Shown here: positions 11,626-21,005 of the stretch, piece after piece | Layout of the letters: each line of letters begins with the position of its first letter | Position numbering within the stretch: the first letter of the stretch is position 1 | Assembly (NCBI GenBank): GCA_042584585.1 | Contig: JBHOSQ010000011.1 | Span: 1-35,729, forward strand | Reading direction: 5' to 3' | DNA: 35,729 bases | Origin: an archaeon | Lineage (GTDB): Archaea; B1Sed10-29; WALL01 | The notes under the pieces: model-generated | What the model saw: only the letters and a program-made list of their open reading frames with translations | Told to the model about the DNA's origin: nothing | Database searches by the model: none | Position numbers and translations under genes: made by a program

Positions 11626-12803
11626 CACGCATCATCGCAATCGCTTCAGGCAAGGGCGGGGTCGGCAAGACCTCTCTAACCTCTAACTTGGGCATTGCCC
11701 TCGCGAAGATGGGCAAGAGAGTGATTGTGGTCGACACTGACCTGCAGATGGCGAACCTTGGCTTGATGCTGGGCATGGAGGGCAGGCCAATCACGCTGCA
11801 GGACGTTCTTGCGGGCGAGGCCTCGTTGAGCGACGCCGTTTATGATGGGCCTGGCGGGGTCAGGTTTGTGCCGGCTGGACTGTCGATTGACAAGTTCAGG
11901 CGCGTGGACGAAGAAAAATTGATTGACGTCGTGAAGGAATTGGGGAACCACGCTGACATTTTGCTTCTTGACACTGCTGCGGGAATTGGGAACGACGTAT
12001 TGGCGAGCCTGCACAGCGCGACCGAGGTCCTCGTTGTCACGATGGCGGAGTCGATTGCGGTCGCGGACGCCTTGAAACTAATCATGGTCGCCGAGCGCAG
12101 GCTGGGCCTTGACATCACGGGCGTTGTTGTCGAGATGTACAAGGGCATGAAGCAGGAAATGACTTCCAAGGAAATCCAGAAGGCGCTTCAGACCGAAGTA
12201 ATCGCAATTATTCCTGAGGACCCGTTGTTCCGGGAGTCTTCTCTTGACGGAAACCCGGTGGTGGTAAAGCACCCGACGTCTCCTGGCGGCACCGCGGTGA
12301 TTAACCTTGCCGCGAAATTGATTGGCGCGCCGGCCCCGATGATGGAGGAAAGGAAGCGCGGGATTATCGAGATTATTCTTGGGCTGTTGATGCCGAAGAA
12401 GAAGCGGACGCTCACAGGCAAGGCGGAAGAGCCAAAGAAAAAAGAAGAAAAGAAGCAGCCTGTTCCGCCGAAAGAAGAGCCCAAGAAAGAAGCTGCAAAG
12501 CCTCCGGCCGAAAAGAAACCAGCCGCTCCAGTAAAGGCGCCGGTTCCAGCACCCACTGCTCCAGCCAAGGCTCCCACTCCAGCACCCACTGCTCCAGCCA
12601 AGGCCCCAACTCCTATTCCAGCCGCGCCCACTAAGGCTCCAACCCCCACTCCTACCACTCCAACCGGAGAGTTGGCAAAGGCCAACCCCCCCAGTTCTGC
12701 TGGTGTTCCCCCCAGTTCTCCCGGGGCCAAGCCACCCAGCGCGTCTGAGACGGAGCTGTTCGGTTCTCCAGCGAAAAAACCGGGCGAACAGCAGAAAGCT
12801 TAA
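11622..12803 (+). CDS. minD: Archaeal MinD-family ATPase with long Lys/Pro/Ala/Thr-rich C-terminal tail
   Basis: Deviant Walker A SGKGGVGKT, DTDLQMANL, LLDTAAG, IPED; amphipathic KRGIIEIILGLL followed by ~130 aa of low complexity. Confidence 0.9.
   Translation: MTRIIAIASGKGGVGKTSLTSNLGIALAKMGKRVIVVDTDLQMANLGLMLGMEGRPITLQDVLAGEASLSDAVYDGPGGVRFVPAGLSIDKFRRVDEEKLIDVVKELGNHADILLLDTAAGIGNDVLASLHSATEVLVVTMAESIAVADALKLIMVAERRLGLDITGVVVEMYKGMKQEMTSKEIQKALQTEVIAIIPEDPLFRESSLDGNPVVVKHPTSPGGTAVINLAAKLIGAPAPMMEERKRGIIEIILGLLMPKKKRTLTGKAEEPKKKEEKKQPVPPKEEPKKEAAKPPAEKKPAAPVKAPVPAPTAPAKAPTPAPTAPAKAPTPIPAAPTKAPTPTPTTPTGELAKANPPSSAGVPPSSPGAKPPSASETELFGSPAKKPGEQQKA
12545..12604 (+). repeat. 33-nt-period tandem repeat in minD tail (PAPTAPAKAPT)
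   Basis: tccagcacccactgctccagccaaggc identical at 12545-12571 and 12578-12604, with degenerate copies on both sides. Confidence 0.85.
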
Positions 12804-12843
12804 TATTACTTCCTACTCCTAATCAACGTAGAGGTGTTTTTTT

Positions 12844-13065
12844 ATGGCAAATGATAGGCCTTTTGACTTTTTGAATGACTCAATGAACAAACCCGTGCTT
12901 GTTCGGCTTAAGGGAACACGCGAGTTGAGGGGAACGCTCAAGGCGTTCGACGTGCACATGAACCTTGTGCTTGACGACGTCGACGAGCTTGAAGACGACA
13001 AAGCCCTCAAGAAGATTGGGTCAATGCTCGTTAGGGGCGACAACATAGTCTTTATAAGCCCTTAA
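12844..13065 (+). CDS. Sm/Lsm-like RNA-binding protein (SmAP1)
   Basis: Sm1 (GTLKAFDVHMNLVL) and Sm2 (VRGDNIVFISP) motifs; GAGGTG RBS at 12831. Confidence 0.95.
   Translation: MANDRPFDFLNDSMNKPVLVRLKGTRELRGTLKAFDVHMNLVLDDVDELEDDKALKKIGSMLVRGDNIVFISP
13051..13057 (+). promoter_or_regulatory. Putative TATA box inside the 3' end of the Lsm gene
   Basis: TTTATAA placed for a start site near 13078-13080; no other TATA-like box upstream of tRNA-Ala. Confidence 0.45.
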
Positions 13066-13077
13066 TCCCCGAATAAA

Positions 13078-13191
13078 GGGAGCGCAGTGTAACAGCGCTT
13101 ACCCCCGGGATTCACACCCTGGGAGACCGACACCGACCAAAGTCGGTGCATCGCAAACCGACGTTGACCCAAGTCAACGTCAAGGGTTAGC
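13078..13191 (+). other. Structured non-coding leader (four hairpins) before tRNA-Ala, containing the repeated GACGTTGAC-N4-GTCAACGTC palindrome
   Basis: Stems agcgc/gcgct, cccggg/cctggg, caccgac/gtcggtg, gacgttgac/gtcaacgtc (13160-13181). Confidence 0.6.
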
Positions 13192-13265
13192 GGGCTCGTA
13201 GCTCAGTCCGGAAGAGTACCCCCTTGGCGTGGGGGAAGTCCCGGGTTCGAATCCCGGCGAGTCCA
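13192..13265 (+). tRNA. tRNA-Ala(GGC)
   Basis: Full cloverleaf; anticodon loop TTGGCGT; G3:U70 pair; TTCGAAT T-loop; no encoded CCA. Confidence 0.96.
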
Positions 13266-13307
13266 CTATAACACTTTTATAAAGAAACAACAGAAATACG
13301 ACACAAT

Positions 13308-13382
13308 GGGCCCATGGTCTAGCCTGGTTAGGACGCGTCCTTGACGTGGACGAGATCTCCGGTTCAAATCCGGGTGGGCCCA
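13308..13382 (+). tRNA. tRNA-Val(GAC)
   Basis: Full cloverleaf; loop TTGACGT; TTTTATAAA box near 13275. Confidence 0.96.
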
Positions 13383-13383
13383 C

Positions 13384-14073
13384 TCATTCATAATAGCCGT
13401 TTAGTTTCCAGAATTCGTACTTCTGCAAATGCCGCTGGTTTTTGAAGCCAATTAAGCCCAGCCATTTGTTCAGCCGCTTAACCCCGTTGATGTCAATTTG
13501 ATATTCGATGGATCTGCCAAACCGGTCATCATAACGTTCTCGTCTAGATGAAGTAAACAGAAGTCCAAGAGCGATTAGTAACACTTTTACGTTCCCGTAA
13601 AGATTGGCGCTTTTCATAGAAATTGTGATTGTGGGGTAATATTTAATCTGTTTATGCCTTTTCTTAAACGCAAGAGAACCATCAGAATCAAACAACCCGC
13701 GCAGGAACGCAATCTTTAAATCGTCACTTCCGGTCATGATGAATTCAGGAACAGCTATGTTGCTTTTTTTGCCACTCTTAACCCCCAATCCCACAAATAA
13801 TGTATGTAGCTCTACAGATGAAAACTCCAGGATTAGTGCCGAACTTTTGGATTTTATTGTGAGGTTATCTAAGCCATAGAGCCGCCTCTTTCTTGGCAGT
13901 AAAATATTTTCAAAGTAATCTAAGTCTAACAAAGCATCCCCACTATAATTGAAGCGATACCTCTTTCTCCCGTCGTAGGCCTCAATCTTCATATGCCCGT
14001 CGCCAATGTGGTGGCCAATGTCCTCAGCCAGCTCAGCACAGAGTGGCGGTGCCTGGATTTGCCTTTTCTTCAT
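13384..14073 (-). CDS. Free-standing two-motif LAGLIDADG (DOD-type) homing endonuclease family protein
   Basis: LAEDIGHHIGDGH and AFLRGLFDSDGS motifs; low GC (20/60 and 22/60 G+C in two hand-counted lines); no intein or intron context. Confidence 0.88.
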   Translation of the reverse strand: MKKRQIQAPPLCAELAEDIGHHIGDGHMKIEAYDGRKRYRFNYSGDALLDLDYFENILLPRKRRLYGLDNLTIKSKSSALILEFSSVELHTLFVGLGVKSGKKSNIAVPEFIMTGSDDLKIAFLRGLFDSDGSLAFKKRHKQIKYYPTITISMKSANLYGNVKVLLIALGLLFTSSRRERYDDRFGRSIEYQIDINGVKRLNKWLGLIGFKNQRHLQKYEFWKLNGYYE

Positions 14074-14170
14074 TGATTAAGGCTAATGCAATGCCCTTTA
14101 AACCACATGAGTTTAGGGCTTGCCGAGAACAACAAATATAAACGCCACTAGCTCCTAATTTATCCTCGCT

Positions 14171-14255
14171 GCTAGGGTGGCGGAATCCGGTTAACGCGCC
14201 GGCCTTGAGAGCCGGTGGGCCTCGGCCCGTGCAGGTTCAAATCCTGCCCCTAGCG
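14171..14255 (+). tRNA. tRNA-Ser(TGA)
   Basis: Cloverleaf with loop CTTGAGA, long variable arm (gggcc-tc-ggccc), G73 discriminator; AATATAAA box near 14135. Confidence 0.95.
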
Positions 14256-14257
14256 CT

Positions 14258-14429
14258 CGAGGCTTTTCTTTGCGGATGGACGTTGACTCAAGTCAACGTC
14301 AAGGGGCTAGAAAAGCCCCGTCGGCAAAAGAAACTATTTGAACAATACAACCTGCCTCTGGGAGCCTTCAGGCTCCCAAGCCTAACGTGCCGCCTGAGTT
14401 TCAGGCGTTATAATCCTGCCCCTAGCGCT
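14258..14429 (+). mobile_element. Miniature hairpin-rich element inserted at the tRNA-Ser 3' end with 18-bp direct repeat
   Basis: aatcctgcccctagcgct at 14240-14257 and 14412-14429; the 154-bp interior is mostly stems and is near-identical to 20755-20854 (inverted). Confidence 0.75.
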
Positions 14430-14430
14430 T

Positions 14431-15510
14431 CTAAGGGTTAGACACTTTCAGAATCTCGAACACGCGGTCAATGTCGTCCCTGAAGACGACGCCGACTATT
14501 TCTTCTTCGCTGATTACGGGCATGGCTTCCAGGCCGTTCCGCATCATTGAATGCATTACGACGGTGACGGAATCGCCGATTTCAGCGGCGCGCACCCGGT
14601 TCGCGATTGCCTTGAGGCTCGTCGTCTTCCACTTCGACTTCGGCACGTGCCTGATGTCGTAAAGGCTCACCAACTCCATGTGCCTGCCGATTGTCGTGAA
14701 CGCAACCAAAGAGCGGGACTTAATCATTTCCTCAATCGCCTTGTCCAATTTGGTTGCGGGCTTCAGCACCAGGTAATTAGCACGGACAATGCGCTGCAGC
14801 GGGAAATGGGCGAGCAGCTTGTTCGAGAGGGCGTACTCCAGCTCGGAAACCGCGCCCAAGTAAACAAAGATTGAGATTACGAGCAGGATGATGTTGTACG
14901 TGAACAAGGCGTAGAGGAACAAAAAGAAAGTGATGACTGTGGAGACCGTGGTCGCGATGCGCGTCGCGTTCACATAGTCCGTGACGAGTGCAAGCGCCGA
15001 GCGGAACACGCGGCCGCCGTCAAGCGGAATCGCGGGCACGAACAAGTTGAACGAGCCCAACAGCCAGTTAAGCCAGAACGCACTCGAGAACAGCATGGTC
15101 GCTAGCGGGACAGCAATGGAGCCGCCCATCGCCGCATTCCAGTCAGCCCACCCCATTAGGAACGGCAATCCAAAGAGCTGGGCGGCCAAAGCAATCAAAG
15201 TGCATAAAGAAAAGTTCAGGAGGGGCCCCGCAATCGACATTTTGAACTCGGAGTAAGGCTTCAGCTGGACTTCGTCCATCGCGGCCATTCCGCCGATTGG
15301 CAAGAGAACGATTTTTTTGACGTTGATGCCGTGCAGCTTGCCGATGATTGAGTGCGAGAGCTCGTGCAGGGTGATTGACGCGAAGAGCACGAAAAGGATT
15401 ATGAGAAAGCTCCAGTCCAGCAGGAGGAAGAGCAGGACAAACAGTATGAAGGATATGTGGAGCTCGACGTCTATCCCCATGACGTTGAATATCTTGAAGT
15501 TGCTCTTCAT
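14431..15510 (-). CDS. Site-2 protease (M50) with C-terminal CBS domains
   Basis: HELSH, LLPIGG, AGP, NLFVPAIPLDGGR; CBS-like C-terminus. Confidence 0.93.
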   Translation of the reverse strand: MKSNFKIFNVMGIDVELHISFILFVLLFLLLDWSFLIILFVLFASITLHELSHSIIGKLHGINVKKIVLLPIGGMAAMDEVQLKPYSEFKMSIAGPLLNFSLCTLIALAAQLFGLPFLMGWADWNAAMGGSIAVPLATMLFSSAFWLNWLLGSFNLFVPAIPLDGGRVFRSALALVTDYVNATRIATTVSTVITFFLFLYALFTYNIILLVISIFVYLGAVSELEYALSNKLLAHFPLQRIVRANYLVLKPATKLDKAIEEMIKSRSLVAFTTIGRHMELVSLYDIRHVPKSKWKTTSLKAIANRVRAAEIGDSVTVVMHSMMRNGLEAMPVISEEEIVGVVFRDDIDRVFEILKVSNP

Positions 15511-20714: not shown

Positions 20715-20854
20715 GCGGCCTGCTAATGCAGGCGGTGTGTGTGGAACCTACGATTCCCAGAGGCGGGTTGTATTGTTCAAATAGTTTTGCCGACTGGGCT
20801 TTTCTAGCCCCTTGACGTTGACTTGAGTCAACGTCCATCCGCAAAGAAAAGCCT
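20715..20854 (-). repeat. Second copy of the tRNA-associated hairpin element, directly downstream of tRNA-Gly
   Basis: Reverse complement of 20755-20854 equals 14260-14363 apart from two substitutions and one 4-nt indel; two further hairpins keep structure but not sequence. Confidence 0.9.
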
Positions 20855-20856
20855 AG

Positions 20857-20929
20857 TGCGCCGTGGGGGATTTGAACCCCCGTTATTAGCTTGGGAAGCT
20901 AAGGTCCTGCCAGACTAGACTAACGGCGC
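20857..20929 (-). tRNA. tRNA-Gly(CCC)
   Basis: Cloverleaf gcgccgt..acggcgc-a; loop TTCCCAA; TTCAAAT T-loop. Confidence 0.96.
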
Positions 20930-21005
20930 ATCATTCGTCCGCTGTCGGCAGTAGCCGGCACGGACAACGTGCCAGCTTAGTTTAAGCTGCTTGACTAACG
21001 GCGCA
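20918..21005. repeat. 13-bp duplication of the tRNA-Gly 5' end flanking a 62-bp triple-hairpin insert
   Basis: gactaacggcgca at 20918-20930 and 20993-21005; stems cggc/gccg, gcacg/cgtgc, cagctta/taagctg between them. Confidence 0.8.

Follow-up and report, generated by a model that had tools for sequence, protein, structure and literature searches.

The window analysed here (the whole stretch of 35,729 nt) belongs to a genome of Candidatus Iainarchaeum, G000, which is assembled in 32 contigs, measures 1.02 Mb and is 84% complete. In it, a tRNA-Ser(UGA) gene and the gene of an M50 (site-2-type) protease with a CBS domain converge on a short insert bordered by a direct repeat. Both ARAGORN and Rfam recognised the tRNA as complete without any splicing. 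The 18-nt sequence AATCCTGCCCCTAGCGCT occurs in two exact copies in the window, at 14240-14257 and 14412-14429; a search allowing up to 3 mismatches still returned two matches, for a chance expectation of 0.03, and two or more were found in none of 100 shuffled sequences. With 2 mismatches the repeat grows to 23 nt (14235-14257 versus 14407-14429, 91% identity) at a spacing of 172. Its first copy contains the end of the T-loop (from A58), the 3' strands of the T-stem and of the acceptor stem, the discriminator and 2 further nt. The second copy, scored against the end of tRNA-Ser, reached 18, a value matched by 0/500 shuffles, and a single nucleotide (14430) separates it from the protease stop codon (14431-14433). 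The preliminary description of this DNA had reported the exact repeat around 154 bp, the convergent stop 1 nt beyond it and four stems in the insert, and all these elements were recovered, the stems as a palindrome at 14279-14300, hairpins at 14360-14377 and 14391-14407, and an outer 9-bp complement between 14261-14269 and 14309-14317, bases that the minimum-energy fold pairs somewhat differently. Misassembly, which it had considered as a possible source of the repeat, is unlikely because the same arrangement recurs in the independently assembled genome of a sister species (G002). The features of the locus and of a second, related one in the same window are the following:

13160-13181, no strand: copy of the H1 palindrome, 11 nt upstream of tRNA-Ala(GGC) (palindrome search)
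14171-14256, + strand: tRNA-Ser(UGA), intact, the likely insertion target (ARAGORN; Rfam tRNA, 62.2 bits)
14240-14257, + strand: repeat copy 1, inside tRNA-Ser (repeat search and shuffles)
14260-14320, + strand: module A, T-rich trailer hairpin AGGCTTTTCT...AGAAAAGCC, 59/59 identical to the tRNA-Gly(CCC) trailer at 20796-20854
14279-14300, no strand: H1 palindrome GACGTTGAC-N4-GTCAACGTC, nested in the loop of module A (inverted-repeat search)
14321-14351, + strand: module B, linker GTCGGCAAAAGAAACTATTTGAACAATACAAC, common to the tRNA-Gly(CCC) trailers of G000 and G002
14352-14408, + strand: H unit with hairpin a (14360-14377), linker AAGCCTAACGTGC (14378-14390) and hairpin b (14391-14407), one of 36 genome copies
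14408-14411, + strand: TTAT filler from hairpin b to repeat copy 2, identical in G002
14412-14429, + strand: repeat copy 2, orphan tRNA-Ser 3' end (repeat search; score 18, 0/500 shuffles)
14431-15510, - strand: M50 (site-2-type) protease gene with CBS domain, convergent (ORF/domain match)
20755-20855, - strand: second copy of modules A and B with a degenerate H unit, directly behind tRNA-Gly(CCC) (genome search, alignment)
20814-20835, no strand: copy of the H1 palindrome (palindrome search)
20856-20929, - strand: tRNA-Gly(CCC) gene
20931-21005, + strand: H-like unit 5' of tRNA-Gly(CCC), hairpin b at 20973-20989 (0/100 shuffles)

The 154-nt insert is highly structured, with folding energies of -66.2 kcal/mol as RNA (z -5.6) and -40.6 kcal/mol as DNA (z -7.2), neither of them equalled in 200 shuffles. 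Rfam 15 yielded no match in 14257-14430 at E values up to 1; its matches within the searched interval (window positions 12500-15500) were three tRNAs plus three sub-threshold ones over tRNA-Ala/Val. By contrast with the idea of a self-contained 172-bp satellite element, which had been put forward for this unit, the insert is composite and built of repeated modules: a comparison of the 211-nt region with its own genome gave 56 matches and resolved a trailer hairpin of tRNA-Gly(CCC) that encloses a 22-nt palindrome, then a linker, and finally a unit of 56 nt, the H unit. T-runs occur on both strands, directly past the tRNA-Ser end and ~95 nt past the protease stop, and those of modules A and B would probably act, once in place, as terminators for the two convergent genes. 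The H1 palindrome has 19 copies in G000, and for 12 of these the distance to one of the 39 tRNA genes does not exceed 220 nt (binomial P 1.8e-16). Its stem is invariant and its loop variable, copies stand beside tRNA genes on either side, and they frequently sit inside the loop of another hairpin (trailer hairpin A or hairpin a of an H unit), as if loops were landing sites. Another repeated module of G000, ACCCTTTTTCTGTTAC...GGAAAAGCGTYGAYGGAAAA, is a long T/A-flanked hairpin seen in several tRNA trailers and at C24:640-960; it lies 3' of several tRNAs and of the 5S rRNA, often immediately preceding an H unit, and could be a two-way terminator travelling with the H element.

The H unit family and its target duplications

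H units consist of a variable GC hairpin a, the conserved linker AAGYCTAACGTGCC and hairpin b. Iterated nhmmer searches found 36 copies in G000, 14 of them within 400 nt of a tRNA (P 4.7e-12), and a covariance model detected 32 copies in G000, 47 in G002 and 6 in G001, all three genomes being Candidatus Iainarchaeum, and 0 copies in 98 other relatives that included three other genera of the family. Hairpin b exhibits compensatory double changes at 3 of its 6 pairs in an alignment of 21 copies, and the stems of hairpin a vary in sequence among copies and keep their complementarity. We found no matching Rfam family, no match of a degenerate H core in the viral contigs of IMG/VR and no description of such elements in the full-text literature, supplements being outside this search. 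We regard H units as a family of hairpin insertion elements that is restricted to the genus and apparently undescribed. Two other identities were considered and dropped: hairpin b as a mimic of the T-arm, from which its loop differs, and the whole unit as a C/D-box, H/ACA or attC element, since no box or R'/R'' motifs were seen by eye.

The duplication behind tRNA-Ser is one of many. For each of the 36 G000 copies, the 70 nt past hairpin b were compared with the 300 nt before the unit, with 100 shuffles as reference. Eleven copies had a repeat of 10-35 nt with a score reached by 0/100 shuffles, starting 0-6 nt past hairpin b and having its partner up to 112 nt upstream; 2 further copies were borderline (p 0.02-0.03), and 23 showed no flanking repeat at p < 0.05, these copies without repeat being either old or arrived in another way. 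The duplicated targets comprised the 3' ends of the tRNAs Ser(tga), Arg(tcg), Arg(ccg), Val(cac) and Gly(gcc), the 5' end of tRNA-Gly(ccc), the last 16 nt of the 5S rRNA, three protein-gene 3' ends and one repeat of the C6 island. The duplication begins inside the 7-nt T-loop in 4 of the 5 tRNA 3'-end cases and usually stops 1-2 nt past the tRNA end, sometimes 10 nt. As these are 11 different targets, each with its own 10-35 nt duplication, a site-specific integrase with a single att core cannot account for the H family. The same test was applied in G002 to 53 units from 31 fetched loci, 15 of which were dropped because the match fell short of the model end; 23 of the 38 kept had repeats of 9-51 nt.

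In both genomes, the hairpin-b end of the element shifts by no more than 0-8 nt and the hairpin-a end is variable. The orientation is equally strict: hairpin a faces the intact gene and hairpin b adjoins the orphan copy in 7/7 RNA-gene cases of G000 and in 6/6 G002 cases with a repeat inside an annotated tRNA, two sets that come from kin genomes, are not independent and both count the tRNA-Ser case. At tRNA-Ser and tRNA-Arg(tcg), a GTT is present both in the T-loop and in the flank of hairpin b; microhomology at the junctions followed no consistent pattern, and 2-8 nt fillers without it occur at G002 tRNA sites. Two H units of G000 (C8:23918-24004 and C8:44269-44336) end exactly at base 1 of intact tRNA-Ser(CGA) and tRNA-Ser(GGA) genes. 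They sit between promoter and tRNA, with no detectable duplicate, and RNase P would need to cut there immediately past hairpin b.

Several sites can be compared between genomes in filled and empty states. At C13:22953, G000 has TTTGACTGAA on each side of the unit, and G002 and G001 have a single TTTGA(C/G)TGAA or equivalent, in what is not a clean isogenic pair, as the DNA past the site differs between genomes. At C13:13286, where the unit is absent from G002, the two convergent genes both have their stop codons inside the 14-nt repeat and each, therefore, retains its end. G000 has no cassette behind tRNA-Asp, G002 has 1 and G001 has 2, and every one of them terminates with a copy of the tRNA-Asp 3' end; the two copies of G001 (L071, G001:C36:6450-7148) are a perfect one of 21 nt and a diverged one of 19 nt, and the anticodon region of the tRNA-Asp gene at this locus contains a long intron rich in hairpins. 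At a protein-gene locus of G002 (L083, G002:C9:43900-45000), the last ~50 nt of the gene, stop included, are present three times, separated by two H units, as the outcome of tandem re-insertion at one site or of unequal crossing-over there.

The tRNA-Ser locus in relatives and its chimeric cassette

In G002, tRNA-Ala, tRNA-Val and tRNA-Ser follow one another in the same order as in G000. Behind tRNA-Ser come a different T-rich trailer hairpin, an H unit with an identical hairpin b, TTAT and a repeat copy 2 in which 15 of 18 positions match, the last 14 exactly. Between this copy and the protease, G002 has 3.8 kb of small genes with ParE, MazE and AbiE-like matches, some below the Pfam cut-offs, and two extra tRNA-Ser end fragments, each followed by trailer-like sequence. 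The unit had been expected to lose its standing if relatives carried a large integrated element of which it was just a deletion scar. G002 does bear a larger block with tRNA-Ser fragments, but this block is distal to the shared H unit and repeat and does not replace them. It is made up (L041, G002:C12, 3183-7016) of three toxin-antitoxin-like blocks, with ParE/MazE-like pairs, one of them duplicated (96% over 300 nt), and an AbiEi/AbiEii-like pair, separated by the tRNA-Ser 3'-end fragments and trailer-like sequence. No H unit was found at the borders of these gene blocks and no tRNA fragment adjoins the protease stop of G002.

A search with the tRNA-Ser 3' half retrieved one genome record (the G002 contig) and one metagenome contig (L111), in which an identical tRNA-Ser 3' half is followed directly by TTTATCAC, with neither cassette nor second copy of the tRNA end, and one 200-codon gene precedes the protease. 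The distance from tRNA-Ser to the protease stop is 3.8 kb in G002 and 0.65 kb in L111; an exact 30-mer across repeat copy 2 and the protease stop of G000 had 0 matches among metagenome contigs. Over 551 nt of the protease gene, L111 and G000 share 83.1% identity, L111 and G002 82.6%, and G000 and G002 81.7%, and G001 shares 60-63% with each of the other lineages. As G000, G002 and L111 are about equidistant (82-83%), they form a trichotomy that is compatible alike with three histories of the cassette: one gain in a common ancestor of G000 and G002, a gain followed by precise loss in L111, or two parallel gains. The tRNA-Ser genes of G001 and G005 have no repeat (329/500 and 325/500 shuffles, respectively, score equally). 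Since G001 and G004 have the protease upstream of tRNA-Ser on the same strand, the convergent arrangement is derived, and the 1-nt spacing of G000 may also be derived. Of the proposal that removing the unit leaves a compact ancestral locus, the 1-nt spacing stands and the ancestral compactness is uncertain, G002 and L111 having 3.8 kb and 0.65 kb there. On the other side of tRNA-Ser, a 229-aa LAGLIDADG_3 homing-endonuclease-like ORF (window 13384-14073, - strand; Pfam E 9e-8) fills the gap to tRNA-Val; its stop abuts the tRNA-Val 3' end and the local GC content falls to 46%. The corresponding gap measures only 143 nt in G002 and 13 nt in L111, which makes this gene a lineage-specific insertion.

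The left part of the G000 cassette has another origin than the right. Modules A and B reappear, inverted and 6.5 kb away, behind tRNA-Gly(CCC), and it is from that copy (20755-20855) that the left part of the tRNA-Ser cassette probably derives. In G002, tRNA-Gly(CCC) is followed by two successive H insertions, and after each tRNA-Gly end copy comes AGGCTTTTCTTT...AAAGAAAAGCCC-AGTCGGCAAA, that is, module A without the palindrome; its presence after each of these copies identifies module A as the native trailer of tRNA-Gly(CCC). In G000, module A has the palindrome in its loop, and modules A and B fill the left two-thirds of the tRNA-Ser cassette, which matches the G002 tRNA-Ser locus at the left-junction CTCGA and, on the right, in hairpin b, TTAT and repeat copy 2. 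These alignments are read most simply as the result of ectopic copying, in which gene conversion or template switching would have carried sequence of the tRNA-Gly locus into an H cassette of greater age. Behind its own cassette in G000, tRNA-Gly(CCC) has no significant repeat of its 3' end (477/500 shuffles score equally). At the 5' side of the same gene, the H-like unit lies between two complements of the first 15 nt of the tRNA plus 1 flanking nt (20915-20930 and 20990-21005), a duplication of 16 nt with 1 mismatch in which the unit is antisense to the tRNA. A promoter-like TTTTAAA stands upstream of the orphan 5' copy, such that the pre-tRNA leader would include the element, and G002 has another insert, of 125 nt, in place of this unit.

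Proposed insertion of H units and alternative explanations

The 172-bp unit is likely a scar, later remodelled, that an H unit left by inserting into the 3' end of tRNA-Ser(UGA) and duplicating its target. The preliminary description had offered a target-site duplication as one of two readings, and it is the one that our results support, with the tRNA left intact by the insertion. The duplication would span ~18-22 nt, beginning in the T-loop and reaching 2 nt beyond the discriminator, with an intact tRNA-Ser rebuilt on the hairpin-a side and the orphan copy left beside hairpin b. It would be old, the same or an identical event being present in G002, and afterwards the left two-thirds of the G000 insert would have been overwritten by a copy of the tRNA-Gly(CCC) trailer, giving rise to the chimera. 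Repeat copy 2 is still identical at 18/18 positions in G000 although the insertion predates 18% nucleotide divergence, which fits neutral decay only loosely; conversion or constraint could be involved. Comparison of genomes suggests that H units are mobile; we saw no donor-target pair or excision product for them. Eight sequencing runs each contained only 0.07-0.08 of the sequence words sampled.

We searched for enzymes that might move such elements. The tyrosine integrase model (PF00589, Phage_integrase) had no match in G000 (84% complete), one in G002, on the same contig as tRNA-Ser and 38 kb from it, and two weak or partial ones in G001; its control was positive in 14/14 genomes. Cas1 (PF01867), Y1 transposase (PF01797) and reverse transcriptase (RVT_1, PF00078) were not detected in any of the three Iainarchaeum genomes, with controls that were also positive in known genomes. 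These negative results cover MAGs that are 84-89% complete.

If H units do insert, template switching by the host replication or repair machinery is a way in which we tentatively think they might move. A nascent strand would stall in a target hairpin, for example the T-arm, switch to a donor H element at its hairpin-b end, copy the donor towards the hairpin-a end and return to the target just past the gene end, re-copying that end. The fixed hairpin-b end, the variable hairpin-a end, the strict polarity, the ectopic copying and the tandem re-insertion at one site (tRNA-Asp of G001, tRNA-Gly of G002 and L083, with its three copies of a 50-nt gene end) argue for such polar copying or capture. 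However, the junctions lack consistent microhomology and the protein-gene targets have no sequence in common with tRNAs. A more general proposal, which we regard as doubtful, is that H units represent a transposase-independent mobile DNA of DPANN archaea: modules of ~55 nt that would be template-switched into stalled or broken hairpin-forming gene ends, entering always at hairpin b and re-copying 9-51 nt, at sites that would become landing pads for gene cassettes such as the toxin-antitoxin genes of G002.

Alternatively, and this is possible if somewhat questionable, though about as probable as template switching once insertion is accepted, the units might be inserted by an unrecognised nuclease or transposase of cellular, plasmid or viral origin making variably staggered cuts at structured gene ends, with fill-in generating the duplications. 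The constancy of the hairpin-b end to 0-8 nt and the strict polarity speak for it, and the conserved linker and covarying hairpin b look like a protein recognition site. There is also a precedent at the T-loop region of a tRNA: the casposase of Aciduliprofundum boonei needs the T-psi-C-loop segment of tRNA-Pro for integration and produces a duplication that overlaps the tRNA end and measured 15 bp in 26/28 clones (PMC5137440). Against this explanation, that 15-bp length compares with 9-51 nt for H units, Cas1 is absent from our searches of the three Iainarchaeum genomes, the H core has no match in IMG/VR viral contigs, and terminal inverted repeats are lacking, since a search of the cassette returned the internal palindrome and no other inverted repeat.

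The other reading of the preliminary description, attL/attR sites of a tyrosine-integrase element, now seems improbable. The unit would be, in that case, the deletion scar of a kilobase island or a minimal satellite moved by an integrase in trans. A tRNA 3' end duplicated from the T-loop onwards is what classically marks att sites, and a repeat made of the tRNA 3' part does border the insert; moreover, G002 has its 3.8 kb of toxin-antitoxin-like genes with two extra tRNA-Ser fragments before the protease and a Phage_integrase match 38 kb away on the same contig. Yet in G000, where PF00589 has no match, the H unit occurs at 11 targets with repeats of their own and of different lengths. Besides, no H units delimit the gene block of G002, which is distal to the H unit and repeat common to both genomes, and with no tRNA fragment at the protease stop there is no visible template for a fragment-to-fragment deletion leading to the G000 state.

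It is quite improbable that the unit is a non-mobile functional module (a pre-tRNA trailer, a terminator or a small RNA) maintained by selection and spread solely through gene conversion and local duplication. The T-runs on both strands past the tRNA end and the protease stop, the resemblance to trailer hairpins behind several other tRNAs and the covariation, which supports a structure, are compatible with a function, and the chimera would document gene conversion between loci; nevertheless, L111 has an identical tRNA 3' half without the cassette, copy number varies among three congeners (6, 32 and 47), units at the ends of protein genes have fresh duplications that reach 51 nt, and no Rfam family was matched. 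Finally, retroposition of an H transcript reverse-transcribed at a nick, as in the target-primed reverse transcription of SINEs and LINEs, would account for the variable duplication length, fixed 3' end, variable 5' extent and strict polarity, but is very improbable given that RVT_1 is unmatched in the three genomes, there is no A-rich tail and the orphan copy bears the genomic trailer bases CT instead of CCA.

Comparison with known mobile elements

Tyrosine-integrase elements (SSV-type, pNOB8-type, PYG1 and others of Thermococcales) resemble the H case in that insertions can pile up behind one tRNA, as seen in G002. They differ from it in that H inserts are 55-170 nt long and non-coding, have many targets, each with its own duplication of 9-51 nt, and use 5S rRNA, a tRNA 5' end and protein-gene ends among these targets, with no integrase found in G000. 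In Thermococcaceae, partial tRNA genes lie beside elements of 9-23 kb, with a 44-bp repeat in the case of PYG1, and that work attributes tRNA gene fragments to such 9-23 kb elements or to CRISPR (10.1101/2022.07.05.498093). The casposon shares with H units a long duplication at a tRNA 3' end, in the T-loop region, which in its case results from staggered nicks and fill-in; casposons possess terminal inverted repeats, their own Cas1 and polymerase and a fixed 15-bp duplication (PMC5137440), whereas H units have neither terminal inverted repeats nor a Cas1 and their duplications vary in length.

Like H units, MITEs and REP/BIME elements are small, non-coding, multi-copy, hairpin-forming, non-autonomous and mostly located at gene boundaries; with MITEs, H units also share presence/absence between relatives. 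MITEs have terminal inverted repeats, short fixed-length duplications and a cognate transposase. H units lack the first two, and the integrase, Cas1, Y1 and reverse transcriptase models revealed no related autonomous transposon. REPs make no duplication and depend on a Y1 (RAYT) transposase; H units differ from them, and from IS200/IS605-derived palindromic elements, since duplications are present and no Y1 HUH transposase was found in the 3 genomes. Target-primed reverse transcription is recognised by duplications whose length varies, a 3' end that is fixed, a 5' extent that is not, and strict polarity, and H units resemble SINEs in having target duplications of variable length, one defined end, the other variable, and strict polarity. 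Unlike SINEs, they have neither a reverse transcriptase nor a poly-A or simple-repeat tail, and their host is prokaryotic. Integron attC arrays offer another likeness, with imperfect hairpins bounding small insertions, and G000 has arrays at other places. In contrast with integrons, there is no integron integrase, the H duplications are long and not a GTT core, and the gene cassettes behind the G002 tRNA-Ser are not bounded by H units. Archaeal BHB tRNA introns have a bulge-helix-bulge motif at each boundary and must be spliced out before the tRNA is made; tRNA-Ser is complete here without that step. To our knowledge, no transposase yields products like these duplications of 9-51 nt.

DPANN archaea have very small genomes. 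Iainarchaeum, with no Y1-transposase, Cas1 or reverse-transcriptase match in three genomes, still bears tens of structured elements in two of them, and these elements would land at the ends of essential RNA genes and rebuild those ends. If they are moved without a dedicated enzyme, or by an unknown one, they would exemplify a new route by which long target duplications form in prokaryotes, and this would explain orphan tRNA fragments and cassette arrays in genomes without a found recombinase. Orphan tRNA ends of this type should consequently not be taken for integrase att sites when genomic islands are called. The unit behind tRNA-Ser(UGA) departs from integrase elements, casposons, MITEs, REP/RAYT systems and retroposons in the features that define each of them; it looks like an att scar and works like a non-autonomous insertion element.
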